Source: an uncultured virus (IMG/VR IMGVR_UViG_3300035539_000076) (Duplodnaviria; Heunggongvirae; Uroviricota; Caudoviricetes). Taken from it: a stretch of 20,000 nucleotides of DNA. The stretch lies in IMG/VR virus record IMGVR_UViG_3300035539_000076, one strand, 5' to 3'. The first letter of the stretch is position 1. Each line of letters begins with the position of its first letter. This document shows, in pieces, positions 878-19,056 of this stretch. The translations under genes and the position numbers were made by a program. The notes below the pieces were generated by a model. That model was not told the origin of the DNA and did not search any database. It saw only the letters and a list, made by a program, of their open reading frames with translations.

Positions 878-888
878 GCCTTTTCATA

Positions 889-2772: not shown

Positions 2773-2786
2773 ATTAAAACTCCTTT

Positions 2787-2819
2787 CCTCAGCCAGCCTT
2801 GCGGTCTGGTCTTACGAGG
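2787..2819 (-). ncRNA. Conserved structured 5' leader motif, copy 1
   Basis: CCUC-GUAAGA-CCAG-A-CC-GCAA-GG-CUGG-CU-GAGG directly before AAAGGAG. Confidence 0.7.
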
Positions 2820-2845
2820 GCAGATTAGAATATTTTCTAATCCTT

Positions 2846-2863
2846 ACATATTATATATACCAA
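2846..2863 (-). promoter_or_regulatory. Repeated phage promoter-like motif TTGGTATATATAATATGT
   Basis: Identical 18-mer at 3749-3766 and 19056-19073; always intergenic and upstream of minus-strand genes. Confidence 0.8.
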
Positions 2864-2884
2864 GAATTTTCATTTTTTATTTTC

Positions 2885-2921
2885 TGTATAGGTAAAAAAA
2901 GAGGTGCGTGTTCAGCCTCTT
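2885..2921 (-). terminator. Intrinsic terminator with ACCTATACA tail
   Basis: AGAGG...CCTCT stem overlapping the stop of 2912..3211, then a T-tract and ACCTATACA. Confidence 0.65.
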
Positions 2922-3211
2922 GAAATTTTCTTTAAATTTGCCAAGGCTATTTCTTCAGCCCATGACAAAATGTTAAAATCATTTAATTCTTCTAGGCCAT
3001 AACGGCCTATTTTGTCTTTGATTCTTTCTAGCTCAAGTATTTCTTGAGCTTTTTTCTTTTTTGCATCTTCCGCAATTAAATGCGGAAATAAAATTTCTTT
3101 TAATTCTTCCTCAAAATCGTCAAAAGACGATTTTGGGATACTTTCTACTTTTAATTCATATTCCTTTTTCATCCATGATTTGATGGAATCTACCTTATCT
3201 TTCAATGTCAT
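2912..3211 (-). CDS. Hypothetical protein (99 aa)
   Basis: ORF with AAGGAGGG RBS; lies downstream of the hammerhead. Confidence 0.85.
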   Translation of the reverse strand: MTLKDKVDSIKSWMKKEYELKVESIPKSSFDDFEEELKEILFPHLIAEDAKKKKAQEILELERIKDKIGRYGLEELNDFNILSWAEEIALANLKKISRG

Positions 3212-3242
3212 ATAATAATCCCTCCTTCGGGTATTATTGATT

Positions 3243-3266
3243 TGTCAGAATTATAGGCTTCCGACA
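3243..3266 (-). other. Hairpin with GCCUAUAA loop (second copy at 10263-10282)
   Basis: UGUCGGAA-GCCUAUAA-UUCUGACA. Confidence 0.55.
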
Positions 3267-3281
3267 CGTAGCCTTTGTTAC

Positions 3282-3347
3282 TGACCTGTCTCATCAGTGG
3301 CAGGAGGTCATCCCTACCAGACGAGGGCAGAACCCTCGTTTCGACAG
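3282..3347 (-). ncRNA. Type II hammerhead ribozyme
   Basis: Minus strand CUGUC-GAAA-CGAGGG-UUCUG-CCCUCG-UC / UGGUAGGG-AUGACC-UCCUGCCA-CUGAUGA-GACAG-GUCA. Full CUGAUGA/GAAA core, GUC triplet, three helices, and loop I UGACC complementary to 3' GGUCA. Confidence 0.93.
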
Positions 3348-3351
3348 TGGC

Positions 3352-3675
3352 TTAAACGTACTTAACGAATCCGGGCACAGCCACAATGTGCCCTTTTTCA
3401 TTTCGAAGAGCTTCCCCAGTGTTTGGGGATACTACATCGTTTCTATCGGTAGCTTGTGCTACCATTGCTGATACTACGTAGATGGTATCTTTTTCAGGTG
3501 CAGGTAAACCTTCTACACCTGTGGATCTTGATTCTTTAACTTCAAAACCGTTAAGTCCTTCAACGGTTTTTGTTTCTGTTTTTACTCTGGGAATAATCCC
3601 AGAGGGTTGGATGGTTATTGTTTCTGATCCTTTTTTAATATTTAATGGGTGGGGTGTGCAATTTATTATATTCAT
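3352..3675 (-). CDS. Small NxTPH-motif protein (107 aa), possible Crn4-like ring nuclease / anti-CRISPR
   Basis: IINCTPH...PSG..PRV...GLP...YVVS..VA...R.D...P...R...G.I pattern of a widespread viral family. The link to Crn4 is from recollection and is unverified. Confidence 0.5.
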   Translation of the reverse strand: MNIINCTPHPLNIKKGSETITIQPSGIIPRVKTETKTVEGLNGFEVKESRSTGVEGLPAPEKDTIYVVSAMVAQATDRNDVVSPNTGEALRNEKGHIVAVPGFVKYV

Positions 3676-3689
3676 ATTAAATCTCCTTT

Positions 3690-3722
3690 CCTCTGCCAGC
3701 CTTGCGGTCTGGTCTTACGAGG
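3690..3722 (-). ncRNA. Conserved structured 5' leader motif, copy 2
   Basis: CCUC-GUAAGA-CCAG-A-CC-GCAA-GG-CUGG-CA-GAGG then AAAGGAG; part of a ~95-bp repeat shared with 2770-2863. Confidence 0.7.
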
Positions 3723-3748
3723 GTGGACTAGAATATCTTCTAATCCTT

Positions 3749-3766
3749 ACATATTATATATACCAA
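3749..3766 (-). promoter_or_regulatory. Repeated promoter-like motif TTGGTATATATAATATGT
   Basis: Exact copy of the 18-mer. Confidence 0.8.
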
Positions 3767-3803
3767 CATTTTTTGATTTTTTTCATTTTATTATATGTTA
3801 GTT

Positions 3804-3846
3804 TATATAGGTAAAAAAAAGAAAGAGAGCTTTCGCTCTCCCTTTT
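3804..3846 (-). terminator. Intrinsic terminator with ACCTATATA tail
   Basis: GAGAGC-GAAA-GCTCTC hairpin followed by TTTCTTTTTTTT. Confidence 0.85.
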
Positions 3847-4026
3847 TTATATTATCAGAACTAGTAGCAATACTGCTACTGTTCCAACTTGCAGCACACC
3901 AAGTGCTGCAAGCGGTCCTACAAACACAAGAACAAATAATACTGGTACCAATAATAATAAATACGCAGGTCCAACAATAACTAACATCAATAAAGAAAAC
4001 AAAACAGAAATTAAAAAATTAAACAT
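3847..4026 (-). CDS. Uncharged hydrophobic membrane peptide (59 aa; not in ORF track)
   Basis: MFNFLISVLFSLLMLVIVGPAYLLLLVPVLFVLVFVGPLAALGVLQVGTVAVLLLVLII; AAGGAGG RBS, own promoter, leader and terminator. Confidence 0.75.
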   Translation of the reverse strand: MFNFLISVLFSLLMLVIVGPAYLLLLVPVLFVLVFVGPLAALGVLQVGTVAVLLLVLII

Positions 4027-4039
4027 ATAATGTCCTCCT

Positions 4040-4074
4040 TTAGCTGCCAGCCGATTGGTCTGGACTTACGCTAA
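4040..4074 (-). ncRNA. Conserved structured 5' leader motif, copy 3
   Basis: UUAGC-GUAAGU-CCAG-A-CC-AAUC-GG-CUGG-CA-GCUAA then AGGAGG; outer helix differs in sequence but still pairs. Confidence 0.7.
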
Positions 4075-4079
4075 TTTTT

Positions 4080-4097
4080 TCATGTTACATATACCAA
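4080..4097 (-). promoter_or_regulatory. Variant promoter-like motif TTGGTATATGTAACATGA
   Basis: Same TTGGTATAT core, same position relative to leader and gene. Confidence 0.6.
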
Positions 4098-4182
4098 GGA
4101 TTTTCTAATTTTTATTTTACCGTTCAACAACAACCTTTCGTGATACAATCTATAATGAACATAGACTAGGGAGGTTTTATTA

Positions 4183-5622
4183 ATGAAAAGTTTAACAAAA
4201 ATGGCTTCCCAAATGGTTCCTCAAGGATATGGTGTAGAAGACCATTTGGATAGAGATATATACCAAGAATATTCGCAAAAACAGAGAAAAAAAGATAAAA
4301 AAAGAGTATTGAAAAATAATGCTATGGGTGCTGCTTTAGCTGGTGGAGCAATAGGTGCTGGGCTTGGTGCTGCGTTAGGCCACAAAGGACAAAAAGCTTG
4401 GCAACAAGCTGGAGTTGATTTTCCTTGGCTTAAGACAAAAGCGGGATTATTAGGTGGTGCCGCTGGAGCTGGTATTGGTGCTACTTCAAGTATTGCTGGA
4501 TTAGCCAACGCTACAAACAAAGAAAGAAAAAGACAGGAGAAAACAGCTAGTATAAATATGCAAAAGATAGCTGCATTTTCTGCTGGAGTTGATTATGTTT
4601 TATACAATGACAACGTAGAACCTATGTTAAAACTTGCCAAATTAACTGAGATAGAAAAAAGAAAATTACAAGATATGAGGGCAAGAGATTATCAAAGTAT
4701 GAGTGATGTAGATCGAAGATATTTTAATGATTTTAAAGAAAATGAAAAAAAGTGGAATAGGGAAGAAACATGGAGAAAGCTTTTAGGGGGTATGGGAACT
4801 GGTGCATTAGTAGGAGCCGGTGCTGGTGCTATAAGAGGGGCTACAAAATCAATACCAACAGACAATAATGCGCCAAATCCAGCAGATAGACTTCCGGGGG
4901 TTGTACAAAAAAGCATAGCTGGAGTAGATACTATTACAGGGGCGGGTTCTCCTGATCAAAATCAAACCCCTCCTCAAGCAAACCCTAGTAATACGCCTAA
5001 CAAATGGGGTAATGCATTAAAAGGTGCTGCAGGCTGGGGAGCTGCCGGTGCTGCTGCAGGTGTTGCTGGTGGATGGATAGCTGATCGTGTAGCCAAGAAA
5101 AAACGTCAAGATCAAATAGACGAATATTCTTACACTAAAGCTTTAAAAGGTGGAAGTCCATATAGGCCTGCATATGATGCGGCTATGAATAGATTGAAAA
5201 CTGCTTCAGACCATAGCATATCTGCAACTGTAAAAATAGAAGATGACTTTAAGTTTGCTAAAGAAGCTTATGCCAACCTTGGAAAGTTCATGCAATCTTT
5301 GAGAAATACTAGTCAAAACGCTGGCAAGTCTATGCAACAATTAAACAAAGCTAAAGGTAAGTATAAAAATTTCCATTCTGATTTAGGCAAAGGATATTTA
5401 TCTAAATCATTAAGTTCACAGGCTTCTGGAGCTAAAGAGGTTGGAGGTTATAACAAATTACATAAGGTGTATAACAGCAATAATATGTCAGGGAAAAAAA
5501 CTCAAATAGCTGAAAGTAGAGATTTGAGAAAAGCTCAAATTGATCTTGAGGTTTCTAAAAAAACAAACAAAAATCCATATAGTAAAAAAATAGATTATGA
5601 TTACGCTTTAAACAGAAAATAG
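4183..5622 (+). CDS. Gly/Ala-rich glycine-zipper protein (479 aa), putative virion internal/ejection protein
   Basis: Several GxxxG hydrophobic segments separated by Lys-rich stretches; GGGAGG RBS; TGATACAAT at 4141-4149 upstream. Function is inferred. Confidence 0.7.
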   Translation: MKSLTKMASQMVPQGYGVEDHLDRDIYQEYSQKQRKKDKKRVLKNNAMGAALAGGAIGAGLGAALGHKGQKAWQQAGVDFPWLKTKAGLLGGAAGAGIGATSSIAGLANATNKERKRQEKTASINMQKIAAFSAGVDYVLYNDNVEPMLKLAKLTEIEKRKLQDMRARDYQSMSDVDRRYFNDFKENEKKWNREETWRKLLGGMGTGALVGAGAGAIRGATKSIPTDNNAPNPADRLPGVVQKSIAGVDTITGAGSPDQNQTPPQANPSNTPNKWGNALKGAAGWGAAGAAAGVAGGWIADRVAKKKRQDQIDEYSYTKALKGGSPYRPAYDAAMNRLKTASDHSISATVKIEDDFKFAKEAYANLGKFMQSLRNTSQNAGKSMQQLNKAKGKYKNFHSDLGKGYLSKSLSSQASGAKEVGGYNKLHKVYNSNNMSGKKTQIAESRDLRKAQIDLEVSKKTNKNPYSKKIDYDYALNRK

Positions 5623-5635
5623 GAGGTAATTTTTT

Positions 5636-6019
5636 ATGATTAAAACAGCAAGATATTACAAATTAGCCGAAGATGAAAAAAAGAAAAAAAGAATTAATCC
5701 ATGGTTAGCTGGAGGATTAGCCGCTGCAACAGCTGCCGGCGGATTGGCATATGCTAATCACAGAATGGATGGAGCTTTAGTGGATAAAGCTAAAGGTTGG
5801 TTTAATGGTGGAAATCAGCAAACACAAGGTGGCAGCATGGAATCTAATCCTAGAGGGGGGGTACCTCAAATGTCTAATCCTGATTCAGAAAATGTTCAAG
5901 TGCCTAAATTACAACAAGCCCCTGATCTATCGCAACAAATAGATTCTCAATCCCCAACTCAGTTTGCCCAAAATACTACTAGAAATCAAATGCGCAATTC
6001 TTTATTTGGCAATAGATAA
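5636..6019 (+). CDS. Small protein with one Gly/Ala-rich hydrophobic helix and a Gln-rich tail (127 aa)
   Basis: AGGAGG RBS; KKKKRINPWLAGGLAAATAAGGLAYA segment. Confidence 0.8.
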   Translation: MIKTARYYKLAEDEKKKKRINPWLAGGLAAATAAGGLAYANHRMDGALVDKAKGWFNGGNQQTQGGSMESNPRGGVPQMSNPDSENVQVPKLQQAPDLSQQIDSQSPTQFAQNTTRNQMRNSLFGNR

Positions 6020-6030
6020 AGATAGATAAG

Positions 6031-6054
6031 GCAGGAGCAAAACTCCTGCTTTTT
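6031..6054 (+). terminator. Intrinsic terminator
   Basis: GCAGGAG-CAAAA-CTCCTGC-TTTTT. Confidence 0.8.
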
Positions 6055-6075
6055 CTGATATTGGAGGGTTATGAC

Positions 6076-6678
6076 ATGATAAACAATGAATTTATAAAAA
6101 CAGCTGCAGGAACTAATTATTTGAATTATTATGGAAATCAAATGACAGAGCCTGTCAATATAAGAGGAATATACCATAGTGATGAAGATGAAGATTTAAT
6201 GAGAACAAATACGTCTCAAGCTTTGTCTTTGGAAAATCAAAGTAGAAAAAAGAAGAAAAAAGGTGGTGCCGTTGGAGGGGTAACTGGTGCTGTCTTAGCC
6301 GGGGTGCCAACAATAGTGGCTGTGGGAAATGAAAAGGGCCTTGGAGCTGGGCTCGCTGCTGGAGGCGCTGCTGGTGCTGCTGGAGGATTGCTAGGCTATT
6401 TTACAGGCAAAAAGGTTAGCGGCAATAAAGAGAAAGAAAAAGCCAATAATTATAAGCAAACTAATACAATTAATTATGTTGGAATAGTAGATAGGAATTA
6501 TAAGAAATCAAATCAAGATAAAAATAAAATGCCTATTCCTAGAATAGAAGGCAATGAAAAGAATAGAAATTTAACAAAACAACACCATCAATCTGCTATC
6601 AATATGGCTGAATTATTTGGGAAATTAGATGGATTAAGGGCACAATATAATCTACAGAATGCCCCCAGCCAAATATAA
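6076..6678 (+). CDS. Glycine-zipper protein (200 aa)
   Basis: GGAGG RBS at 6063-6067 favours the ATG at 6076; paired Gly/Ala helices follow a poly-Lys stretch. Confidence 0.8.
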   Translation: MINNEFIKTAAGTNYLNYYGNQMTEPVNIRGIYHSDEDEDLMRTNTSQALSLENQSRKKKKKGGAVGGVTGAVLAGVPTIVAVGNEKGLGAGLAAGGAAGAAGGLLGYFTGKKVSGNKEKEKANNYKQTNTINYVGIVDRNYKKSNQDKNKMPIPRIEGNEKNRNLTKQHHQSAINMAELFGKLDGLRAQYNLQNAPSQI

Positions 6679-6714
6679 TGTATAGGTAAAAAAAGAGGGC
6701 ATTGCGCCCTCTTA
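6679..6714 (-). terminator. Terminator between convergent genes, with ACCTATACA tail
   Basis: GAGGGC-GCAAT-GCCCTC-T7-ACCTATACA on the minus strand; the same hairpin recurs near 7011 and 7396. Confidence 0.8.
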
Positions 6715-6715
6715 A

Positions 6716-6988
6716 TTAATTTCTTTCTAAAAAATTGTTAATCTCAGCTGTTAATCCTTCCATCCTTTGCTCTTCTTCATATGTTATATTATCAAAAATG
6801 TAATTGTATAATTTATCAAAATCAACTTTATATTCTTCATCATTATCAGTTTCATTTTCTAAAGCTATCAATATATCAGATTTTAAGTTCAATTTATAAA
6901 TATTGACTGTGTCACTATTGCCATTCTTGAATTGTTCAATTTCTTTATTTATTTGTTCATCTATTTCTTTTAAAGTTTTCTCTGCCAT
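6716..6988 (-). CDS. Acidic hypothetical protein (90 aa), paralog of 7042..7374
   Basis: AGGAGG RBS favours the ATG at 6988 (MAEKTL...); shares EI..FKN, L.LK.DIL and YK.DFD.L with its neighbour. Confidence 0.85.
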   Translation of the reverse strand: MAEKTLKEIDEQINKEIEQFKNGNSDTVNIYKLNLKSDILIALENETDNDEEYKVDFDKLYNYIFDNITYEEEQRMEGLTAEINNFLERN

Positions 6989-7423
6989 GATAACGCCTCC
7001 TATAAAAAAAGAGGGCATTGCGCCCTCTCTTACATTTATAATTAATATCTTTCTCCATTCAAATATCTTTCTACGAATTCATAAATGTCATCACTCCACG
7101 CTTCATAAGACACATCAGTATAAGAATCAACAAAATCAATAAGATCATCAAAATCCATTTTATAATCTAAAGTTGCTTTATCATCTTCATCTTCCATGCT
7201 ACTTATTTCTTCTACCTTTTCTAATATATCTTTTTTTAATGTCAATTCTTCCATTCTTTGTGTGTTGCGATATATCTCTGTTAGAAAATCATCATCTTTT
7301 GTTTCAGCGTTTTTAAATGTTTTTATTTCTTCATATAGTTCTTTATAAGCTTCTCTCAAAGTTTTTTCTGCCATAATAATACCTCCTATAAAAAAGAGGG
7401 CATTGCGCCCCCCTTACATTTAT
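6972..7423 (-). repeat. Duplicated ~67-bp unit (6972-7039, 7358-7423): terminator hairpin + RBS + MAEKTL start
   Basis: ATAAATGTAAG..GGGCGCAATGCCCTC-Tn-ATAGGAGG..TTATYATGGCAGARAAAACTTT in both copies. Confidence 0.85.
7042..7374 (-). CDS. Acidic hypothetical protein (110 aa)
   Basis: ORF with AGGAGG RBS; paralog of 6716..6988. Confidence 0.85.
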   Translation of the reverse strand: MAEKTLREAYKELYEEIKTFKNAETKDDDFLTEIYRNTQRMEELTLKKDILEKVEEISSMEDEDDKATLDYKMDFDDLIDFVDSYTDVSYEAWSDDIYEFVERYLNGERY

Positions 7424-7575
7424 GCTTTTGGATGAACTTCTACAACTAAACCTTGTTGTAATTCTTTAGCTTCTTTTTCAGCTTCTTCTTTTGTATCAAA
7501 TAACTTTGTATCCCCTTGTTCATCGGTTATAATACATATATTATCTTGCCAAAAAGTTTCTAATACTATATACAT
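7420..7575 (-). CDS. Small hypothetical protein (51 aa; not in ORF track)
   Basis: MYIVLETFWQDNICIITDEQGDTKLFDTKEEAEKEAKELQQGLVVEVHPKA; TAATG coupling to the upstream gene; AGGGGTGA RBS. Confidence 0.75.
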   Translation of the reverse strand: MYIVLETFWQDNICIITDEQGDTKLFDTKEEAEKEAKELQQGLVVEVHPKA

Positions 7576-7892
7576 TATTCATCACCCCTTAATTTATTTA
7601 AAAATTCTTCTGGAAGATCATCTATACGATCTTCCGCATATGATGGTGGTTGGTTGGCTATGCAATTGATGTTGTTAAGGTTGAGCATTGAGCATCCATG
7701 CTCGGATATCCCGTAAGTGTATGATACAGTGCCTTCTTCTTCATCTAAAATAATTTCTACTTCACCATAATCGTTGAAATCTTCCACTGTAAAATCACTT
7801 CTGTTATCTAGGTTTGCTTCCTCTATTTTGTCTAAAATATCTTCGTAAACTTCTTCATTAAACATTTTTAATTCGTCTGCTGTTAATTTCAT
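7575..7892 (-). CDS. Highly acidic hypothetical protein (105 aa)
   Basis: ORF packed within the operon, AGGGGG RBS. Confidence 0.85.
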   Translation of the reverse strand: MKLTADELKMFNEEVYEDILDKIEEANLDNRSDFTVEDFNDYGEVEIILDEEEGTVSYTYGISEHGCSMLNLNNINCIANQPPSYAEDRIDDLPEEFLNKLRGDE

Positions 7893-7903
7893 TTTATTAC
7901 CCC

Positions 7904-8326
7904 CTAGTCGTTTGATATCTTTTTTAAAGTGTAACTTAAATTTCTTTCTTTTAATTCACCATACAACACTGATTCTTTTAAACTGCTGATAGCTTCATCC
8001 ATATTAGATCCGTATACATACATCAGTATTGCTTCTCCAGAATCAACTTTAAGACCTTCGATATTCAAATCCGTTTCTACTATAACGGCATATGTTTTTA
8101 CTGTATCGGGGTCAACTATTTCTATTATATCCACATCATCTATGGAAAAGTCTGGGAACTGATCTTTATATTCTAGAATAACGCTTTCTACCTTGTTTCT
8201 AGCATCTTCAAAGTTATCTGCATATATTGTTTCTAAAATAGTTTGGCCGGAGATGGACTCATCTTCATCCAGATGAGCCGCCATAACCCCATGCACCATG
8301 TCTACTACTACACCAATTCTTTTCAT
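7904..8326 (-). CDS. Acidic hypothetical protein with internal two-fold repeat (140 aa)
   Basis: GQTILETIYADNFEDA and GEAILMYVYGSNMDEA halves; GGAGGAG RBS. Confidence 0.8.
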   Translation of the reverse strand: MKRIGVVVDMVHGVMAAHLDEDESISGQTILETIYADNFEDARNKVESVILEYKDQFPDFSIDDVDIIEIVDPDTVKTYAVIVETDLNIEGLKVDSGEAILMYVYGSNMDEAISSLKESVLYGELKERNLSYTLKKISND

Positions 8327-8545
8327 TTAAATCTCCTCCATATCTTTTGTTTGTGTTATTTCTGCAATTTTAATATTACTATCTTCAAAACCAATATGGA
8401 ATTGGTTTCCTTCTTCGTAGAACTTTTCTTTCGCTTCTTCAAAAGAGTTGGCATCTACCATATCCAGTATTTGCATGTTTTCCACAACATTTCCATCATT
8501 GTCCTCAGTATATCCTCCATCAGTGAAGATAACATATTTTTTCAT
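8327..8545 (-). CDS. Acidic hypothetical protein (72 aa)
   Basis: AAGGAGGAG RBS; ILDMVDANSFEEA motif resembles the repeat in 7904..8326. Confidence 0.85.
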   Translation of the reverse strand: MKKYVIFTDGGYTEDNDGNVVENMQILDMVDANSFEEAKEKFYEEGNQFHIGFEDSNIKIAEITQTKDMEEI

Positions 8546-8559
8546 TTTAACTCCTCCTT

Positions 8560-8997
8560 CTAATATATTGATACTACAATTACATTTGTTAAAAGTTTTA
8601 TTTCGTATTTAGCATAATAGTCTCCAAAATACCCCCACATTGGTTTGGGAAATTGACCCATAGTTTCACGATAAGATATTCCTTCATATAATACTTGAAT
8701 TATTTTTTGTTTAAATTCGGAAGAAAAAGGTGCAACCCTTTGTTCTGAAACAAATTTATCGAAATCCTCTGGAGCGGATTGAAGGTCAAATGAGAAATAA
8801 ATTTTTTCATCTTCTTTCATCAATAAAACTTGAACCTTTTTGTTTGCGGTAACATCTGCTACAATACCAAGACCCATATCTTGATATGCAATACCATTAT
8901 TTTTCCAATATTTTAATAACTCCATCCTCAGTTCTTCAGCCGCAAACGCGAACATACTTATCATCAATATTAAAGTTACTACCAATAATTTTTTCAT
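8560..8997 (-). CDS. Secreted/periplasmic protein with signal peptide (145 aa)
   Basis: MKKLLVVTLILMISMFAFA has a basic N-region, hydrophobic core and AxA site; AAGGAGG RBS. Confidence 0.8.
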   Translation of the reverse strand: MKKLLVVTLILMISMFAFAAEELRMELLKYWKNNGIAYQDMGLGIVADVTANKKVQVLLMKEDEKIYFSFDLQSAPEDFDKFVSEQRVAPFSSEFKQKIIQVLYEGISYRETMGQFPKPMWGYFGDYYAKYEIKLLTNVIVVSIY

Positions 8998-9074
8998 ACT
9001 AAATCCTCCTTATTGACTACTGTGTCGTAGTATTCTTTTTTTAAATGTTCTTCATCAATATAAGGTTTCATCAT
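8994..9074 (-). CDS. Mini-ORF (26 aa)
   Basis: MMKPYIDEEHLKKEYYDTVVNKEDLV; AAGGAGGG RBS and ATGA overlap with the next gene. Confidence 0.55.
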   Translation of the reverse strand: MMKPYIDEEHLKKEYYDTVVNKEDLV

Positions 9075-9091
9075 TTTAATTCCCTCCTTTT

Positions 9092-9471: not shown

Positions 9472-9493
9472 AACACTATACCTCCTTTAGCCT

Positions 9494-9511
9494 ATTTATA
9501 TTATATACCAA
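9494..9511 (-). promoter_or_regulatory. Variant promoter-like motif TTGGTATATAATATAAAT
   Basis: TTGGTATAT core, intergenic, upstream of AAGGAGG. Confidence 0.6.
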
Positions 9512-9521
9512 CATAAACTGT

Positions 9522-9917
9522 TTAAATACCACATCTTTCTAATATTTCTCTATCTAAATTTTCAAAGAATAAAGATTCATCTGATTGATATACAATTTCA
9601 GGTTCAAGACTTCCAGGCACGTAATCCATATAATCGTCCGTATCAACCCTTTTTAAATTATCTCTTTTTTCGTTTATTTTAGAATAATACAAATCGCCTC
9701 TATATGAATCATTTAACCAGTGCTTTGCAAATTGCAAAATCACCACATTCCCAGTTTCATCTTTCCATTTTGGGAAATTTTTCTTGTTAACAAATTTACC
9801 ATTTGACCATCGTATTTTTCTCTCAATAAGTTTATCTCTAACCCTAAATAATTGTTCTTTATTCCTAATTATCAATGTGAAATCTGATGCTACTATAGGT
9901 GATAGATGTTTTGACAA
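9522..9917 (-). CDS. Hypothetical protein (131 aa, TTG start)
   Basis: AAGGGGG RBS before TTG. Confidence 0.75.
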   Translation of the reverse strand: MSKHLSPIVASDFTLIIRNKEQLFRVRDKLIERKIRWSNGKFVNKKNFPKWKDETGNVVILQFAKHWLNDSYRGDLYYSKINEKRDNLKRVDTDDYMDYVPGSLEPEIVYQSDESLFFENLDREILERCGI

Positions 9918-10231
9918 TTTAATTCCCCCTTTTTTATTTTATTTTCTATTTCACGATATTCATATTGGCGTCCGTTTCCTCTACACCAATGAATATTGAA
10001 TTTTTTACCTTCCGTTATTTCTAGAAGATAACGAGGTTCACTAAAACCTCTTGACTCTGTAATTTTTTTTAATAAGTCCATGGTAATTTCTTCCCCTTCT
10101 TCATCATTTTCGATAAACACAAACCTATCGAAACTCGCAAACTGATCATTTGAATTTGTTTCTTCTGTTTGAGTGTCGATAATTATAAAACCATCGTATT
10201 CCTTAATTTTAGTAACATATGATACATACAT
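9893..10231 (-). CDS. Hypothetical protein (112 aa)
   Basis: GAGGAGGG RBS; first gene after the promoter motif at 10310-10336. Confidence 0.8.
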   Translation of the reverse strand: MYVSYVTKIKEYDGFIIIDTQTEETNSNDQFASFDRFVFIENDEEGEEITMDLLKKITESRGFSEPRYLLEITEGKKFNIHWCRGNGRQYEYREIENKIKKGELNCQNIYHL

Positions 10232-10262
10232 ATTTATTCCCTCCTCGGGTAATCTAAGTTGG

Positions 10263-10282
10263 CCGGGATTATACGCTCCCGG
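10263..10282 (-). other. Hairpin with GCGUAUAA loop
   Basis: CCGGGA-GCGUAUAA-UCCCGG; loop matches 3243-3266 but the stem is different. Confidence 0.55.
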
Positions 10283-10309
10283 TTTTGCGTTTTAACAACT
10301 TAATACTAT

Positions 10310-10336
10310 GTAATGTTAACATATAATATATACCAA
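10310..10336 (-). promoter_or_regulatory. Promoter-like motif, long subtype TTGGTATATATTATATGTTAWCATTAC
   Basis: 27-mer recurs at 13977-14003 and 18739-18765 with one variable position. Confidence 0.8.
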
Positions 10337-10379
10337 AATTATTTATAATTTTCTTCTCCATCTCGATCTTCATACCCCT

Positions 10380-11276: not shown

Positions 11277-11277
11277 A

Positions 11278-12129: not shown

Positions 12130-12134
12130 TTATA

Positions 12135-13152: not shown

Positions 13153-13159
13153 CAGCCTA

Positions 13160-13954
13160 TTAATTAATTTTTTTCAAACTGTTTGGACTTATATCGTCCA
13201 TAGGATCTATTACCAATTCTCCATTCCAATCTTCTTCTTCTGTTTTATTTAATTTTTTTGCAAAGTTGTATAGCTCTTCAAATTGTTTTAACAAGTTTTT
13301 CTTTTCAATAAACTTGTCAATAGCTATTTTTTGTCTGAGATTTAAACTAACATTTTTATTAGTACCGATAACATATTTTTCATTTTCATCAAATCCTTCA
13401 ATAGAATAAGTTATAGAATTTCTCCATTCAGTAGATACTATTTTAAAAGTTTTGACATTGTAGTTATTAATATTAAATATCTTTTTTATTTTGTCAAAAA
13501 ATATACTACCTTGATGAATTGAAGTTGGCATTACTTTATTTAACTCAAAGAATCCTTCAACATCTCTTATTTCTACCATTCTTTCACCTTGATCCACAAC
13601 TTTTTTTACCCTAATTTGCATCTTAACTCCTCCTTTTTGTTGAGTTTTCTCATAATATCGGCTTCTTTGTTTCTTTAATTTTTCTTTTTCATAACGTTGT
13701 TTGTCATATTCCCTTTTTTTCTCTTTATATTTCTCATTATATTCCCTTTTTTTCTCTTTATGTTCCTGATAATACTTTTTAGAATATTTCAAAGCATATT
13801 CTTTATGTTCTCGATAATATTTCTTTTGTCTTATCCTTGCTACCTTTTTTACACATTCTTTACAAATGTTTAAATACCCATCAGCTGTTGTCGGATGTTT
13901 GTAAAACTCACTAATGTCCTTAGCTTTATGACATTTTTTACATACCTTAGTCAT
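13160..13954 (-). CDS. Zinc-finger/Lys-Tyr repeat module of the kind found N-terminal to phage HNH/EndoVII nucleases, fused in frame to a 153-aa protein starting at 13621
   Basis: KVCKKC...EFYK....DGY...CKEC, KEKKREY twice; internal AGGAGGAG plus ATG at 13621; no HNH catalytic motif seen. Confidence 0.7.
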
Positions 13955-13976
13955 TTTACTACCTCCTTTAAAATTA

Positions 13977-14003
13977 GTAATGATAACATATAATATATAC
14001 CAA
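13977..14003 (-). promoter_or_regulatory. Promoter-like motif, long subtype
   Basis: TTGGTATATATTATATGTTATCATTAC. Confidence 0.8.
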
Positions 14004-14016
14004 AAAACTTAATAAA

Positions 14017-14640
14017 TTAATACATAGTGCCACATAATGGGCAGGAATCTAAACTTGCTTCATTTTCAGTTATATTCATACCGCAGGATGGACATTTAAA
14101 ATCGTAAACATCAAGGCCTGCCTCCGAAACGGTTTCTTCAAATAATTCAGGATCTTTACCTCGATTTATAACTGTTAACGATATTAGAAATTGTTGAAAA
14201 TCAAATTTAAGATACATATCATCTGGTGAGTAAAGTTCTAAGATTAGTTTTACACCGTATAATTCACTAAGTGCATATAATCGTTTTTTTATAAATTCTA
14301 TATAGTCTTCAGTAAATAAATAATAATTTGCATAGAATTCAAATAAATATATATTGTCTTCATCTTTTTCTAAATCCACCAATCTCATATCATCATAAAC
14401 TACATCTGTTTTTATTATTTTGATATTTGATATGACAAATTCTAAAAAATAATTCCTGCTTAAAAACTTTATTTCATCATGATCTAGTTTGTTTATTATA
14501 AATCCATCTACTTCGTATTCGCTTGTTGCTATTGCAGCATGAGGTTGTTTGAAATCCTTATCGAACTTTTCCTTACTTTGTTCTTTTCCTTTTACTATTA
14601 ATCGCATTTTATTTGCATTTTTGTCTGTGCTAATATACAT
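14017..14640 (-). CDS. Hypothetical protein with C-terminal zinc ribbon (207 aa)
   Basis: CPSCG...CPLCG at the C-terminus; AGGAGGG RBS. Confidence 0.85.
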   Translation of the reverse strand: MYISTDKNANKMRLIVKGKEQSKEKFDKDFKQPHAAIATSEYEVDGFIINKLDHDEIKFLSRNYFLEFVISNIKIIKTDVVYDDMRLVDLEKDEDNIYLFEFYANYYLFTEDYIEFIKKRLYALSELYGVKLILELYSPDDMYLKFDFQQFLISLTVINRGKDPELFEETVSEAGLDVYDFKCPSCGMNITENEASLDSCPLCGTMY

Positions 14641-14656
14641 TATTATTCCCTCCTAT

Positions 14657-14690
14657 AAAAGAAAAAGGATGCAGTGATTGGCTGCATCCT
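14657..14690 (-). terminator. Intrinsic terminator immediately upstream of the RBS of 14017..14640
   Basis: AGGATGCAG-CCAATCA-CTGCATCCT-TTTTCTTTT then ATAGGAGGG. Confidence 0.8.
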
Positions 14691-14791
14691 AGGGGTTTGT
14701 GAAACATTTGCGTGTTAATTTGGTATTAATCAAGTCATTATTATTGTATCATAATTATAAGTGAAATACAATCTCAATTTACATTTCGCTG

Positions 14792-14820
14792 AAAATGGGT
14801 AGGCAATGTCACACCTACCC
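14792..14820 (-). terminator. Intrinsic terminator after 14834..15892
   Basis: GGGTAGG-10 nt loop-CCTACCC-ATTTT. Confidence 0.6.
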
Positions 14821-14833
14821 TGCATGTTGATTC

Positions 14834-15892
14834 TTAGATTTGATATATAGCATTAACTATATTTTGCACATGTTCTATGTTATCCACATATAACTCTAAA
14901 GGTTTATAATATATCTTATTTGGTATTACAGTTAAACGACTGTTGTTTTTTATATCATAAAATATATCCTGTAAAGCTGTTTTTCTTATTTTTGGGAATG
15001 TACTTGCAACCTTTCTTTTCAAATTAGATTCTAATATCTCATCTATTTGATTTAGAAAAGATGATCCATTTTGTTCGTCTAAATAAGAGGTTGACTCTAA
15101 CTCTAATGAATAGCCTCCAGTTTTGCCATACTGGACTATTATCTTAGTTAACGAAGATCTTAGTTCCATGGTTATTTTATCATCAGGATTTCCACCATAG
15201 ACTTTACAAGTATTGAATATCAAAGGAGATTTAGGTATAAACGAATAAAGATATTCGGTTAAACCATCTACATCCATTTCATCTTGTCTATGTAGGAATT
15301 CGAATAACTTTTTAAAATTTTTCTTTGACATTTCAGCGTACATCTTGCTAAAATTGAATATATTCAAATCTATAACATTCTGGTAAACCCTGAAAGTATG
15401 GATTTTATCATCTTGATTATTCAAAATGTCATTAACTTTGGTGATAGGACTTATAGCCAACTTACCTAAGTATTCCATATACTTCTTGTGCATCCAACTT
15501 CCTTTTATGTTAGATTTATCGTATAGGTGGAGTGTGTATCTCGTGTTTTTGATGTCTATAAATTCTGACACGATATAAGCTACAGAATCGATACCTTTGC
15601 CTGTTCTTTCTATAAACTCTAAAATATTCTCTGGATAAAATCCTATTATATAATTTCTTCTAGGGTCGTATGTATTTGTTAATTCTAGTTTTTTGTTTTT
15701 CTTTTTAGCTATTTGAGGGGATAATCTTGCAAAAATGCCCAATTTTAGTTTTTGCCCTTCGTATTTGATTTCCCTAAAGAAATTTATGTTGGTAAGTTCT
15801 CCGTATATATCGTTTTTCAAAATATTTTTTAACCTATCATACCCTGTATATTGTAAAGGTTTTGTATTGCCAATAGTCACATATTTGGCCAT
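14834..15892 (-). CDS. Hypothetical protein (352 aa)
   Basis: Long ORF, GAGGTGA RBS; no family recognised. Confidence 0.85.
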   Translation of the reverse strand: MAKYVTIGNTKPLQYTGYDRLKNILKNDIYGELTNINFFREIKYEGQKLKLGIFARLSPQIAKKKNKKLELTNTYDPRRNYIIGFYPENILEFIERTGKGIDSVAYIVSEFIDIKNTRYTLHLYDKSNIKGSWMHKKYMEYLGKLAISPITKVNDILNNQDDKIHTFRVYQNVIDLNIFNFSKMYAEMSKKNFKKLFEFLHRQDEMDVDGLTEYLYSFIPKSPLIFNTCKVYGGNPDDKITMELRSSLTKIIVQYGKTGGYSLELESTSYLDEQNGSSFLNQIDEILESNLKRKVASTFPKIRKTALQDIFYDIKNNSRLTVIPNKIYYKPLELYVDNIEHVQNIVNAIYQI

Positions 15893-15909
15893 GCTTTTTC
15901 ACCTCTCAT

Positions 15910-15936
15910 AAATAAAGAAGCCCAATTAAGGGCTTC
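15910..15936 (-). terminator. Intrinsic terminator after the helicase
   Basis: GAAGCCC-TTAATT-GGGCTTC-TTTATTT. Confidence 0.7.
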
Positions 15937-17671
15937 AAATCCTTTTGTTTTTCATAACTCTTATTCTGTTATTACTCTGTTTTTTCTTTGGTTTAGGTTT
16001 TTCTATCTTCCCAATAACCTTTTCTTTTTTCGGTTGTTTGATTATTTCTTCTGGTTCATCATCTATAATAGCCACTTTAGCTTTTTTAACGTCTTTATTT
16101 TTTTCTTCTTGTTTTTCTAACTGTTTCTTTTTGAAGAATTCAAATTCCATAAGTTCTTCATGTACTATATCATCTACCAGATCATTTCTTTTTAATTGCT
16201 GATGCCTGGGCTTGTTTAGTTTAAGATATAAATTATAGCCTTGTATTGACTCATTTAAAAATAACTTCCCATAACTTCTGGTGATTGCAACATACGCTAT
16301 GTTAATCTCTTCTGCGTCTTGGCCACGTATTTTTCCAGTTTCACTTGTTTGGGAAACTTTACTAAGATCGATAAGCTCGGTGAAATCTTCATTTAACCTA
16401 ACTGCAGGATATTCCATACCTTTTGATTTATGTACTGTAGAGAATATAACATCGGCATCTTTTTTCTTTAAATCAGGCAGTGATTTTATAATTTTCATAT
16501 ATTTAGGTATTTCATATGTATATACTTGTATTACTTTAACTGCTGTAGATAAAACTCTGTCATTGGCTTCTTCTATATAATCAAGTAAATCATCCCAGTG
16601 TTTATATAATTTTATTTCTGGACTTTTAATATATTTTTTCTTACCTAAGTATAAGTTGTATACATCCCAAATGAGAGAAAAGTTATAACTACGTTTTCCA
16701 CCTTCAAATGCTATTTTATTACCTTTTTTTATTTGGTCTATTAATCCCGCAAACACTCCTATATTACTTCTACATAAATATGTGTATGGATATGAAACAA
16801 CTGGTTCTATTTTTTGATTGGGATTTAGCCCTGATATTTTTATCTTTTTTTTATCATTTACTATACTTAGAATGCCTCGGGCTAAATCTGCTACCTCTTG
16901 TGAAAATCTGAAAGATTTAGATAATGGATATGCCTTAAAATCATGAAAATATTCTAAAGCATTTACCGACATTCTGAACCCATATATCTGTTGAAACCTA
17001 TCTCCGACCAGTACCATCTTTGCATGATTCTGCCTTTTAAGTATATCTATAAATACCCCATTTAAATCTTGAGCTTCATCTACGAATATATGGTCATACT
17101 TCAATATTGGATTGGATAATTGATAAAGCTTTAAATAAAAACTATGGGATATTTTAGTTGAAGTATTTAGATCTTTTTTTAATTCGAAAAGTTTGTGTAA
17201 GTCGTTTATGAGTTTTTTATCAAAACTATGCCAATTGAAATGAACTTCAGATAAAGGCATATCTTCTATATACCTATAGGCAGAATTCAAGTATAAGTTG
17301 AAAAACCTCAAAATAGATGAAGCATATCTTATATTGATACTATTTCTTTTTAATCCTAAATCTTGTAGAACGTCAATAACCTTATAATCATTAACGAGTT
17401 TATCTTTGTATTTGTATCCAACGTGTTTATATGCCAATGCATGAAAAGTTTTTATAGTTAAATTTTTTATATCCGAACCTTTATGTTTTAATTCTATCTC
17501 AATGCTTTTATTAAATGCCAGATATAGAACTTTTTCATTGTTGGAAATGGTTCTTATTTTGTGTAATATGGTTGTAGTTTTACCAGAGCCAGCCACTGCC
17601 TCTACTAAAATCTTCGGTTCATTTGCGTTTATAATATCCTGTTGTTCGTCAGTCAAATTAATGGTAATCAC
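15935..17671 (-). CDS. UvrD/Rep-like superfamily 1 helicase with a Lys-rich C-terminal tail
   Basis: AVAGSGKTT (Walker A), TFHALA, VDEAQD (Walker B), VGDRFQQIYGFR, LSKSFRF, STVHKSKGMEY, YVAITR; start codon uncertain. Confidence 0.93.
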   Translation of the reverse strand: MITINLTDEQQDIINANEPKILVEAVAGSGKTTTILHKIRTISNNEKVLYLAFNKSIEIELKHKGSDIKNLTIKTFHALAYKHVGYKYKDKLVNDYKVIDVLQDLGLKRNSINIRYASSILRFFNLYLNSAYRYIEDMPLSEVHFNWHSFDKKLINDLHKLFELKKDLNTSTKISHSFYLKLYQLSNPILKYDHIFVDEAQDLNGVFIDILKRQNHAKMVLVGDRFQQIYGFRMSVNALEYFHDFKAYPLSKSFRFSQEVADLARGILSIVNDKKKIKISGLNPNQKIEPVVSYPYTYLCRSNIGVFAGLIDQIKKGNKIAFEGGKRSYNFSLIWDVYNLYLGKKKYIKSPEIKLYKHWDDLLDYIEEANDRVLSTAVKVIQVYTYEIPKYMKIIKSLPDLKKKDADVIFSTVHKSKGMEYPAVRLNEDFTELIDLSKVSQTSETGKIRGQDAEEINIAYVAITRSYGKLFLNESIQGYNLYLKLNKPRHQQLKRNDLVDDIVHEELMEFEFFKKKQLEKQEEKNKDVKKAKVAIIDDEPEEIIKQPKKEKVIGKIEKPKPKKKQSNNRIRVMKNKRI

Positions 17672-17686
17672 CTCCCTTGCCGTAGG

Positions 17687-17695
17687 ATTATATCA
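17687..17695 (-). promoter_or_regulatory. Extended -10 promoter (TGATATAAT) for the helicase
   Basis: TGnTATAAT just upstream of GGGAGG. Confidence 0.6.
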
Positions 17696-17710
17696 CATAA
17701 TTCTTTTTTA

Positions 17711-18043
17711 TTAAAGCCCAACACGGGTTTTAAAATCTTCTGTATTTTTATATTCTAACAAAGTAAAGTATCTTATAGTTGTTGCATTATTAATTTCATC
17801 ATATTCATGATATCTCTCATGTAACGTAGCTAATATATCTGCATATATCTCACCCATAGCCTGAGAATATTTATCTGTTTCGTCAACTATACTCTGAGGA
17901 TATATTTGCGTCATGGCTATGGTGATCATCAGCTGTACGTGAGATTTCATTGGTTCATTAGAATCCCTTATGTAACCGTTTTTCTCAAATTCATGGTTTA
18001 TTAATTGCATAGCTTTTTCTTTAACTTTATCTTTATTAACCAT
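17711..18043 (-). CDS. Hypothetical protein (110 aa)
   Basis: ORF with AAGGAG RBS. Confidence 0.85.
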   Translation of the reverse strand: MVNKDKVKEKAMQLINHEFEKNGYIRDSNEPMKSHVQLMITIAMTQIYPQSIVDETDKYSQAMGEIYADILATLHERYHEYDEINNATTIRYFTLLEYKNTEDFKTRVGL

Positions 18044-18060
18044 ATTAGTTCATCTCCTTA

Positions 18061-18564
18061 TTACATTTTTTTTTCAAATTCAACCATGCTTGCTATTTTG
18101 TTGTCATATACCTCAGTGTCTTTGCATAATGTTAGTGTCATATCTCCTTCTGTATATGTGAGTATAGCTTGCTTTTTATAATGATAAAATCCATTCCAAC
18201 CATATTTTTCATATTTTTCTAGTTCTTCCAGCTTCTTGAAATTATACTTGTTCACATATTCCACAAAATGAGCATAGTCGTGTATATATGTTCTGAATAT
18301 ATATGTTTTAGGATCTTTTTCAAAATCGAAATCATCTAACATCTTAACTACATTTTCGTCTATTATCTGGCCGTTTCTTACAGCTACTTGATAATCAAAA
18401 TTTACCGGGATACTAGGTTCACCTTCAAATCCCGAAGCTGTATATAACTGTTGTTCACCTCGATACTTTTTATAATACTTGTTTAGATTATCTTTGAAAA
18501 CTGTTCTGTTCCAAGAGTCTGTCCCTAAAGGATATAATTTCTTTAAATTACTTGTTGTTGCCAT
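18061..18564 (-). CDS. Hypothetical phage protein (167 aa), apparently two small domains
   Basis: AAGGAGTGA RBS favours the ATG at 18564; G.DSWNR.VFKD...LYT...FEGEP and LTYTEGD motifs. Confidence 0.8.
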   Translation of the reverse strand: MATTSNLKKLYPLGTDSWNRTVFKDNLNKYYKKYRGEQQLYTASGFEGEPSIPVNFDYQVAVRNGQIIDENVVKMLDDFDFEKDPKTYIFRTYIHDYAHFVEYVNKYNFKKLEELEKYEKYGWNGFYHYKKQAILTYTEGDMTLTLCKDTEVYDNKIASMVEFEKKM

Positions 18565-18718
18565 TTTGATCACTCCTTTTGTTTGTTTTTTTGAATGTTG
18601 GTGAATACACTTCATAACAATATATTCCTTTATGCAAAGTCAAATGTCTTACCTCTCTGCCTTCTTCAATATGTTTCAAAACGCTCTCAATATTCTTGCT
18701 CTGCAATGTTCTACACAT
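18548..18718 (-). CDS. Small hypothetical protein (56 aa)
   Basis: AAGGGGTGA RBS before the ATG at 18718; first gene after a promoter motif. Confidence 0.65.
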   Translation of the reverse strand: MCRTLQSKNIESVLKHIEEGREVRHLTLHKGIYCYEVYSPTFKKTNKRSDQNGNNK

Positions 18719-18738
18719 AAAATCACCCCTTTGATTTT

Positions 18739-18765
18739 GTAATGATAACATATAATATATACCAA
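18739..18765 (-). promoter_or_regulatory. Promoter-like motif, long subtype
   Basis: TTGGTATATATTATATGTTATCATTAC. Confidence 0.8.
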
Positions 18766-18786
18766 AAAACAAACATATTTTGCAAG

Positions 18787-18828
18787 CGTATAAGTAAAAA
18801 AAAGAAGACCATCAAAGGCCTTCTTTTT
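18787..18828 (-). terminator. Probable terminator with ACTTATACG tail variant
   Basis: AGAAGGCC-TTTGAT-GGTCTTCT hairpin overlapping the stop, then a T-tract and ACTTATACG. Confidence 0.65.
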
Positions 18829-19003
18829 CTATAACCATCCTCAACCAAGTGAGGAAAAGGATGACACCTATAGACGCCGGCATCATCCATACCACCATCA
18901 ACAACGGTGGGGTGAATACTCTGAAGGCCATAAGGCCTAAGAATATTGCATTCTCTATAATTGCAAGCCACCATATTATGGCAATTATTTTTTTTAAATT
19001 CAT
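18812..19003 (-). CDS. Small membrane protein with two predicted TM helices (63 aa)
   Basis: Two hydrophobic stretches; AAGGAGG RBS; own promoter, leader and terminator. Confidence 0.8.
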   Translation of the reverse strand: MNLKKIIAIIWWLAIIENAIFLGLMAFRVFTPPLLMVVWMMPASIGVILFLTWLRMVIEKEGL

Positions 19004-19017
19004 TTTATTACCTCCTT

Positions 19018-19056
19018 TTGGGTGCGGTCGATTTCTCGTTTACCGTCTTATCCCAA
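19018..19056 (-). ncRNA. Conserved structured 5' leader motif, copy 4 (most divergent)
   Basis: UUGGG-AUAAGA-CGGU-AAA-CGA-GAAA-UCG-ACCG-CA-CCCAA then AAGGAGG. Confidence 0.65.

Follow-up and report, generated by a model that had tools for sequence, protein, structure and literature searches.

The minus strand of a 20,000-nucleotide (nt) stretch from an uncultured member of the Caudoviricetes (IMG/VR record IMGVR_UViG_3300035539_000076; the whole stretch is hereafter the window) carries four copies of a short, three-helix RNA motif, each placed immediately before the Shine-Dalgarno (SD) sequence of a small gene. The motif defines a real family of structured RNAs in the messenger RNA (mRNA) leaders of phages and mobile elements and is most likely a portable module; the family is absent from Rfam and new, though it belongs to a familiar type of element, the structured leader. 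We tentatively propose that it may act as a translational operator or enhancer read by a trans-acting partner.

An earlier note on this DNA had located the four copies and assigned their helices and loops, and our reading of the minus strand recovered all of them with the same pairings (Table 1). The elements kept across the family are RUAAGW, CCAG-A-CC, a variable loop, GG-CUGG and CW. A closing helix of 3-5 bp and free sequence (P1, with 12 paired forms) leads into an asymmetric internal loop (RUAAGW on the 5' strand against CW on the 3' strand), which is followed by a 4-bp helix, CCAG/CUGG (P2, invariant outside copy 4), a bulged A, and a 2-bp CC/GG helix (P3) closed by a free loop of 4-6 nt. 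As the note had also claimed, each window copy lies between a TTGGTATAT promoter box and the strong, A-rich SD (AAAGGAG, AGGAGG or AAGGAGG) of an unrelated small gene, the SD starting 0-3 nt past the motif and being followed by the start codon. The proteins encoded behind the four copies are mutually unrelated, and at a threshold of E<=1e-5 Pfam recognised none of their four open reading frames (ORFs). A strict descriptor (4-bp P1, RTAAGW, 4-bp P2 enclosing a hairpin, CW and P1') matched exactly the four copies when both strands of the window were searched; in 200 dinucleotide shuffles it averaged 0.065 matches (maximum 2, with at least one match in 12 of the 200), figures that, for a descriptor devised after the copies were known, overstate the significance of copies 1-3, which are sequence repeats, and are the relevant ones for copy 4. 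When whole leaders, reaching from just past the promoter box as far as the start codon, were folded, P1, P2 and P3 formed both the minimum free energy (MFE) and the centroid structure in five of five cases, with the SD and AUG unpaired in all five, and the isolated motif folded at -7.4 to -14.6 kcal/mol. The proposal of a structured, cis-acting RNA abutting the SD in 5' leaders was thus borne out.

A 183.5-kb IMG/VR contig (G001) matches the window at 100% identity, its positions 8302-1 corresponding to window positions 1-8302 and the contig ending there, before copy 4; because of this identity, we treat the window and G001 as the same phage. The contig contains a fifth copy at 155.68 kb (UACC-AUAAGU-CCAG-A-CC-AUAUU-GG-CUGG-CA-GGUA), which has a new P1. 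Together, the window and G001 hold 14 promoter-box sites with an extended consensus. The motif is present at all five sites of the form TTGGTATAT(A/G)TAA(T/C)ATG (class A), including the one upstream of copy 5, and at none of the nine others. Eight of these nine are class-B sites (TTGGTATATATTATATGTTA), which have a short unstructured leader or another hairpin and never the motif, and the last is an odd site at 9511, also without it. Within this phage, then, the motif marks one promoter subclass. The idea of a phage regulon, advanced in the earlier note, stands to this extent; the motif is not private to this phage, however, for it recurs in other lineages and behind other promoter types. In a sigma-70 scan, no -35 element was found for class-A or class-B boxes. 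As we infer, the TTGGTATAT box would be an extended -10 element (TGnTATATA) with transcription starting at about the G of the conserved ATG; if it is so read, P1 of copy 4 would be intact.

To search outside this phage, we scanned metagenomes with a pattern that fixed UAAGW, P2, the bulged A and P3 and left P1 and the loop free, and obtained 40 matches in 31 stretches. The scan of a genome collection (one genome per species, 185,579 species) returned 10 stretches, which contained one real lineage. A covariance model built from copies 1, 2, 3 and 5 only (R1) was then run on 38 sources, namely the window, locus L010 of G001 and 36 of the 41 scan loci (L115, L118, L119, L125 and L137 were omitted, their printed sequences repeating L105, L099, L100, L109 and L130). 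It gave 47 matches at E<=1, of which 28 scored 34-50 bits, all with a paired P1; the other 19 scored 31 bits or less and matched the pattern only. About eight further lineages are represented, on unrelated, higher-GC, phage-like contigs and on one element of a Clostridium metagenome-assembled genome (MAG). They comprise GC-rich contigs that each bear several copies (P1 UGCCC/GGGCA), a lineage with one copy (UACCC/GGGUA), further single-copy lineages (AGCA/UGCU, AAUCA/UGAUU, AUC/GAU, GCC/GGC, CGGGC/GCCCG and UCCGU/GCGGA) and the uncultured Clostridium MAG, in which the motif lies at two contig ends (AAAA/UUUU). In this MAG, the product of the gene after the motif has a match to the anti-restriction domain at the N terminus of ArdC, and a match resembling plasmid ctRNA lies nearby (38.8 bits, below the gathering score of 45). 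The copies appear to reside on a plasmid-like mobile element, the only cellular occurrence among the 185,579 species. A P3-free scan of IMG/VR (at least 118 stretches) showed, among the matches listed, a P1 of at least 4 bp together with an SD in the three G001 copies alone. Searching IMG/VR for the promoter pattern yielded 64 stretches, the G001 ones alone being related, and the motif was absent from the 66 other loci searched. Searches of the motif by blastn found nothing in phages and three chance matches in plasmids (E=7).

The comparative evidence for the fold is strongest in P1. In an alignment of 25 rows (20 distinct), all four P1 pairs had changed on both sides (27 cells), 99% of the cells were paired, and the covariation score was reached by none of 500 shuffles; controls in which the pairing was slid collapsed, and RNAalifold recovered the same structure. 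P2 and P3 did not vary in this alignment, for which the search pattern had fixed both helices, and among the window copies their covariation depends on copy 4 alone, copies 1-3 having identical P2 and P3. The covariation that the earlier note saw in three helices is therefore upheld for P1 and not for P2 and P3. We nonetheless consider P2 and P3 to be truly constrained, because the same core is shared by lineages that differ in P1, loop, flanks and G+C content (36-73%), and because the variable columns of 12 distinct GC-rich cassettes are the linker, R, W, the P3 loop and the spacer after P1, with UAAG, CA, the bulged A, P2 and P3 constant throughout. Purifying selection on the nucleotides of the loop, the bulge and P2/P3 is shown. 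Further, one U-G pair in P1 and a C or U opposite G in the hairpin of the GC-rich cassettes (described below) indicate pairing in RNA rather than in duplex DNA.

Copy 4 is best described as a divergent, probable member. Model R1 scored it at 8.1 bits (E=4.2), the level of noise matches in other DNA, and no model contains it, MAFFT having left its P2 and P3 out of register. No homologue of copy 4 was found in IMG/VR, where a copy-4-like pattern gave one chance match, in a coding region, and a relaxed descriptor applied to the window, G001 and the metagenome loci produced no convincing new variants. This last search also brought up two look-alikes in L101, one a leader with GUAAGA and a hairpin and the other overlapping a weak HDV-like match. 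In the leader (minus strand, about 110-55), a sigma-70-like promoter (TTGACA-17-TATACT) precedes GUAAGA, a GC hairpin, GA and an SD; a proper P1 is missing, and this element may be a reduced relative of the motif.

The motif keeps its place next to the SD, and the elements upstream of it differ between lineages. It ends 12-15 nt before the start codon, and the CW loop lies 18, 18, 18 and 19 nt from the start codon in the window copies and 16-24 nt from it in the 19 contexts with a called start among the 22 listed; the three without one are L110 (the locus ends too soon), L123 (a decayed SD and a truncated gene) and L101. Upstream hairpins or ribozymes are always 5' of the motif. Copies 3 and 4 have the phage promoter directly upstream, and copies 1, 2 and 5 have the promoter plus a hairpin, that of copy 5 being different from those of copies 1 and 2. 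L117 has a sigma-70-like promoter (TTGACA-17-TATACT) before the motif. In the GC-rich cassettes (L099, L100, L102, L109-L111 and L121-L125), a 30-nt hairpin, GGCCCUACG(C/U)GCAUACACUGGCGUAGGGCC, with 10 bp and an invariant 10-nt loop and without an Rfam match, starts about 25-30 nt past the preceding stop codon and lies 7 nt before the motif. Self-cleaving ribozymes may take this place in two lineages: in L101, a drz-agam-1 match scoring 37.2 bits (gathering score 37) stops 5 nt short of P1, and in L100, L119 and L122, HDV_ribozyme matches of 34.6-35.9 bits (gathering score 50, not reached; E about 0.04) stop 29 nt short of P1. L101 has a second, weaker HDV-like match 3' of the motif (25.1 bits, E=0.12), and, with two such flanking matches and no SD, its motif would end on a small excised RNA. 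The copy-2 unit of the window contains a full-length type II hammerhead, 5 nt past the stop codon of the 107-aa (amino acid) gene and 68 nt before the start of a 99-aa gene, which would cut the copy-2 transcript between the two.

The genes that follow the motif are also diverse. Their products include ArdC-N, DUF4326, DUF488-N3a and AAA_24 proteins, membrane peptides and several orphans that are very acidic. Four other viral contigs encode homologues of the NCTPH protein (the product behind copy 2), and the motif was absent from them. In L123, two cassettes 114 nt apart flank a truncated gene, as expected from cassette-cassette recombination. Because the placement of the motif is tied to the SD and start codon, and not to the transcript start, and because no terminator follows, the antitermination signal that the earlier note had listed among the possible functions is unlikely.

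Composite organisation is also apparent in the window itself. A second box, TTTTTACCTATA, occurs at five sites on the minus strand (0.63 expected; none of 200 shuffles reached five). Those at 2297 and 3806 follow a terminator hairpin detected by a terminator scan, and three copies have a TTGGTATAT promoter 35-51 nt downstream. The terminator, the TTTTTACCTATA box and the promoter together make up a composite cassette that is repeated.

Table 1. Positions of the motif copies and associated features. Coordinates refer to the window unless another source is named; (-), minus strand; R1, covariance model described in the text.
Feature	Position (strand)	Sequence or gene	Score or remark
Motif copy 1	2787..2819 (-)	CCUC-GUAAGA-CCAG-A-CC-GCAA-GG-CUGG-CU-GAGG, then AAAGGAG and AUG	R1 49.0 bits; leader MFE agrees
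Motif copy 2	3690..3722 (-)	as copy 1, with CA for CU; GCAA loop	R1 50.4 bits; leader fold z = -3.7
Motif copy 3	4040..4074 (-)	UUAGC-GUAAGU-CCAG-A-CC-AAUC-GG-CUGG-CA-GCUAA, then AGGAGG	R1 49.3 bits; MFE fold
Motif copy 4 (divergent, probable member)	19018..19056 (-)	UUGGG-AUAAGA-CGGU-AAA-CGA-GAAA-UCG-ACCG-CA-CCCAA, then AAGGAGG	strict descriptor; three helices in MFE fold
SD, spacer and AUG, copy 1	2770..2786 (-)	AAAGGAG; 134-aa acidic protein, ORF 2368-2772	unpaired in fold
SD and AUG, copy 2	3673..3689 (-)	AAAGGAG; 107-aa NCTPH protein, ORF 3352-3675
SD and AUG, copy 3	4024..4039 (-)	AGGAGG; 59-aa hydrophobic peptide, ORF 3847-4026
SD and AUG, copy 4	19001..19017 (-)	AAGGAGG; 63-aa hydrophobic peptide, ORF 18812-19003
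Class-A promoter box, copy 1	2847..2863 (-)	TTGGTATATATAATATG
Class-A promoter box, copy 2	3750..3766 (-)
Class-A variant promoter box, copy 3	4081..4097 (-)	TTGGTATATGTAACATG
Class-A promoter box, copy 4	19057..19073 (-)		motif begins at next base
Extra 5' hairpin between promoter and motif, copy 1	2822..2843 (-)	GGAUUAGAA-AAUA-UUCUAAUCU	MFE fold
Extra 5' hairpin between promoter and motif, copy 2	3725..3746 (-)	A-U to G-U in stem relative to copy 1	MFE fold
Class-B promoter sites, window	18765, 14003, 10336 (-)	TTGGTATATATTATATGTTA
Class-B promoter sites, G001 (L007-L012)	9626, 26649, 105601, 165901, 172352	TTGGTATATATTATATGTTA
TTTTTACCTATA boxes	2297-2308, 2887-2898, 3806-3817, 6681-6692, 18789-18800 (-)
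Type II hammerhead, RF02276	3280..3346 (-)	full-length; CUGAUGA and GAAAC cores	42.1 bits (gathering score 37), E=9.9e-6
HDV-like matches bracketing the L101 motif	L101 492-434 and 367-301 (-)

Several details of the promoters and leaders deserve mention in their own right. The class-B box is one base off class A, and a GTTA(n3)TTAC start is kept in most copies. The class-B leader of ORF 9893-10231 (window about 10230-10320, minus strand) forms a distinct long hairpin with a similarly lopsided layout, in which AAGUUG, a 13-nt 5' loop, CCGGGA-GCGUAUAA-UCCCGG, a single C and CAACUU follow one another, and which ends 24 nt before the start codon. At about 105.6 kb in G001 (L009), a hairpin and a T-run come about 20 nt after a class-B promoter; no ORF follows, and the transcript may be a small RNA. 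The terminal ATG of the class-A box (window 19057-19059, 4081-4083, 3750-3752 and 2847-2849, minus strand; L010 about 1515) precedes the motif. In copies 3, 4 and 5 it shares its reading frame with the UAA of the motif loop, so that mini-ORFs of 5, 3 and 11 codons, respectively, result; in copies 1 and 2, TAA comes immediately after it. These in-frame ATG/UAA combinations may be due to chance or may represent a leaderless mini-ORF.

The wider genome has no cultured relative by megablast of the window against phages, and its helicase matches are all at or below 32% identity. A Pfam scan of the 192 G001 ORFs of at least 75 aa identified DnaG, DnaB, SNF2, terminase, ThyX and thymidylate kinase. 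A 381-aa ORF (L092:19-1161, plus strand) matches RNA polymerase Rpb1 domain 5 (E=7e-9), a fragment suggestive of a phage RNA polymerase of the split, multisubunit kind that jumbo phages have. Proteins with RCC1 repeats, several of them large, are encoded at window 19144-19998 (plus strand) and at 54-66 kb in G001 and are paralogous, with 74-94% DNA identity within the repeats. An IS200/IS605 element (TnpA Y1 transposase and TnpB) lies within the phage genome (L095:17948-19542, minus strand). Downstream of the copy-1 unit, a 59-aa zinc-ribbon protein (window 2061-2240, minus strand; Zn_ribbon_8, E=7.7e-9) has a promoter-like site of its own.

Comparison with known RNA families supports the novelty of the motif. 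We ran cmscan against Rfam 15 with permissive filters (E<=10 on the window and 11 short loci, E<=1 on 12 more loci) and found no match overlapping the motif in the window or the 23 loci, in agreement with the earlier opinion that it is not a known family; the hammerhead, HDV, twister, twister-sister, pistol, hatchet and hairpin models likewise gave no match over the motif itself. No description of the motif was found in the literature consulted on phage structured RNAs, ribozymes and S8 sites, though one may have been published. The closest documented behaviour is that of the 5'-untranslated-region (UTR) hairpins bound by Aca1 and Aca2, which start at the transcription start, end about 20 nt before the start codon and serve to repress anti-defence (anti-CRISPR) operons (PMC13551039). 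Like the motif, these are short covarying leader RNAs of phages and mobile elements, located at or near the transcript start, before early genes of anti-defence type and at a fixed short distance from the start codon; they act as translational operators, as the motif may. The Aca hairpins, however, mimic the DNA operator of a co-encoded helix-turn-helix (HTH) protein, unlike the motif, whose sequence and asymmetric loop also differ from theirs (PMC13551039). No DNA inverted repeat matching the motif was present in the promoter sequences read, and no HTH or ribbon-helix-helix domain was found in 21 downstream proteins (E<=0.01) or in the motif-linked proteins of the window.

Two further systems resemble the arrangement of the parts. 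RiboJ combines a ribozyme with a 23-nt hairpin before the ribosome binding site (RBS), and the hairpin is thought to expose the RBS and stabilise the mRNA (PMC6206723). A RiboJ-like order of parts (putative HDV-like ribozyme, motif, free SD) appears to occur in two lineages, the L100 type and L101, with ribozyme matches of 34.6-37.2 bits of which one reaches the gathering score. RiboJ is synthetic, with a hairpin of arbitrary sequence, whereas the loop, bulge and stem nucleotides of the motif are invariant; and, unlike RiboJ, most motif copies follow a promoter or a plain hairpin, those of the window following promoters. The PeSL cassettes of T4-type phages, which are described as exchange points (PMC4122927; PMC2839356), are similar in being repeated composite cassettes that flank small accessory early genes, with apparent signs of exchange between cassettes. 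A PeSL consists of a promoter and a terminator stem-loop acting as DNA homology, without a leader RNA of conserved loop and compensatory changes.

Four structured RNA sites were considered and rejected. The UAAG(U) strand, the C-rich start of the helix and the opposite C resemble A595-A596-G597-U598 and C643 of 16S helix 21, the site of ribosomal protein S8. The hallmarks of this site in helix 21 and the spc mRNA are a (G597-C643)-U641 triple, an invariant bulged A642 and an A595-(A596-U644) triple (PMC4176348). The 3' loop strand of the motif, being C and W only, offers no equivalent of U641 or A642. At the position of U644, 18 of the 20 distinct members have A and 2 have U, so the defining triples cannot form. 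A kink-turn has a three-nucleotide bulge followed by tandem sheared G-A and A-G pairs, with GA on both strands; the short strand of the motif is CW, and its would-be 2b position is A or U. In the MS2 coat-protein operator, one bulged A separates a helix from two further base pairs that carry a tetraloop, a geometry shared by the upper part of the motif. That operator depends on particular adenines in its loop and includes the start codon, whereas the motif has a free loop and a start codon 12-15 nt away. Finally, UAAG opposite A could form a U-A pair and an AA platform beside a G-C pair, as in the 11-nt GAAA tetraloop receptor, and MFE folds pair the G of UAAG with the C of the CW loop in several members. 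In place of the receptor's UAUGG strand there is CA, an extra purine precedes UAAG, and there is no consistent GNRA partner loop.

Several functions have to be weighed against recognition by a factor. One alternative is a passive insulator or stabiliser, a natural counterpart of RiboJ in which a stable hairpin with no specific partner shields the SD and blocks 5'-to-3' decay. We consider this unlikely. It would account for the ribozyme-motif-SD order in two metagenome lineages, the hammerhead in the copy-2 transcript and the stable folding of the motif beside an unpaired SD and AUG, and it matches the role ascribed to the RiboJ hairpin (PMC6206723); yet an insulator has no need of an invariant loop, bulge and stem sequence, which are the most conserved positions. 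In silico, accessibility of the SD in native leaders compared variably with that in leaders with a shuffled motif and was not consistently higher, the fraction of shuffles at least as open ranging from 0.02 to 0.82 across 18 members. Improbable, in our estimation, is a signal for RNA processing or decay, at which a nuclease would cut near the SD and end early expression, or an SD-independent ribozyme companion. The HDV-like matches ending 5 and 29 nt upstream of the motif (L101 and L100), the L101 motif between two such matches, without an SD and thus released on a small RNA, and the hammerhead of the copy-2 unit speak for it; most lineages, however, have no ribozyme in the available DNA, and only one ribozyme match near the motif reaches its gathering score. 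To our knowledge, 33 nt is smaller than any natural self-cleaving class.

A small ligand-sensing aptamer, with the junction and bulge as a pocket and the ligand altering access of the ribosome to the SD, also has a low probability in our view. The fixed junction and bulge, the covarying closing helix and the free terminal loop would suit it, as would the 33-nt size and SD-adjacent position, which resemble those of the smallest translational riboswitches. Against it, no expression platform of the sort found in translational riboswitches (for example preQ1-I-like ones) is visible, no common alternative pairing that hides the SD having been seen on reading the leaders, no terminator follows the motif, the downstream genes have no common metabolic theme, cellular genomes lack the motif except for one mobile element, and no Rfam riboswitch family matches. 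We regard it as very improbable that the motif is a DNA repeat only, a recombination-prone regulatory cassette with no role at the RNA level. Whole cassettes are indeed repeated (terminator, TTTTTACCTATA box, promoter and leader, in this order, in the window; hairpin, motif and SD in the GC-rich contigs), the L123 pair surrounds a truncated gene, and the PeSL cassettes of T4-type phages provide a precedent as exchange points (PMC4122927; PMC2839356). Homogenisation of repeats cannot account for the compensatory P1 changes in 12 forms, the G-U pairs, the strict placement relative to strand and SD and the conservation across otherwise dissimilar phages. Moreover, a cassette role and an RNA role can coexist, as in PeSLs.

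Recognition by a factor, as a translational operator or enhancer with a candidate trans-acting partner, is the reading we put forward, with a confidence that stops somewhat short of an even chance. P1 would be a structural clamp, and the loop, the bulge and P2/P3 would present a defined three-dimensional read-out surface. A putative trans-acting macromolecule (a phage protein, a host protein or the 30S platform) would recognise this surface at a fixed distance from the initiation site, and the motif would thereby control, as operator or enhancer, the translation of transcripts that belong to one temporal class. That it keeps a fixed place 5' of an SD both free and strong suggests an effect at initiation, and its independence from gene, promoter type and upstream element points to a self-contained module. 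The motif comes within a portable expression cassette that comprises an upstream boundary (which can be a promoter, hairpin or self-cleaving ribozyme), the motif, the SD and a small gene of early or anti-defence type. That a factor binds, which factor it is and in which direction it acts, we infer. Several observations weigh against this reading. No recognisable RNA-binding protein was among the Pfam matches of the G001 ORFs scanned, and blastp between lineages, whose DNA is fragmentary, gave no matches and thus no shared trans factor. The L101 motif lies between two HDV-like matches without an SD, and an L123 cassette has a decayed SD. The invariance of P2 and P3 is partly forced by the search pattern, and, if copy 4 is a true member, the sequence of P2 and P3 is not essential. 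A bolder version, which we think unlikely though worth stating, is a new class of portable RNA module which, right beside the SD, would dock on the ribosome or respond to a small signal and which, joined to promoters, hairpins or self-cleaving ribozymes, would supply phages and plasmids with insulated cassettes for anti-defence genes of the entry phase.

If a factor reads this 33-nt fold, unrelated phages and a plasmid-like element would have in common a point at which early and anti-defence genes are controlled after transcription, and the motif would be among the smallest natural RNA recognition modules. A ribosome-docking or signal-sensing module would, if real, be a natural ancestor-in-function of the synthetic ribozyme-hairpin insulators, with a specific molecular partner. 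The pairing of motif and ribozyme leads to the testable idea that ribozymes cut polycistronic phage RNA into units with a defined leader. Should these proposals be correct, the motif would also be a compact natural part for expression engineering.

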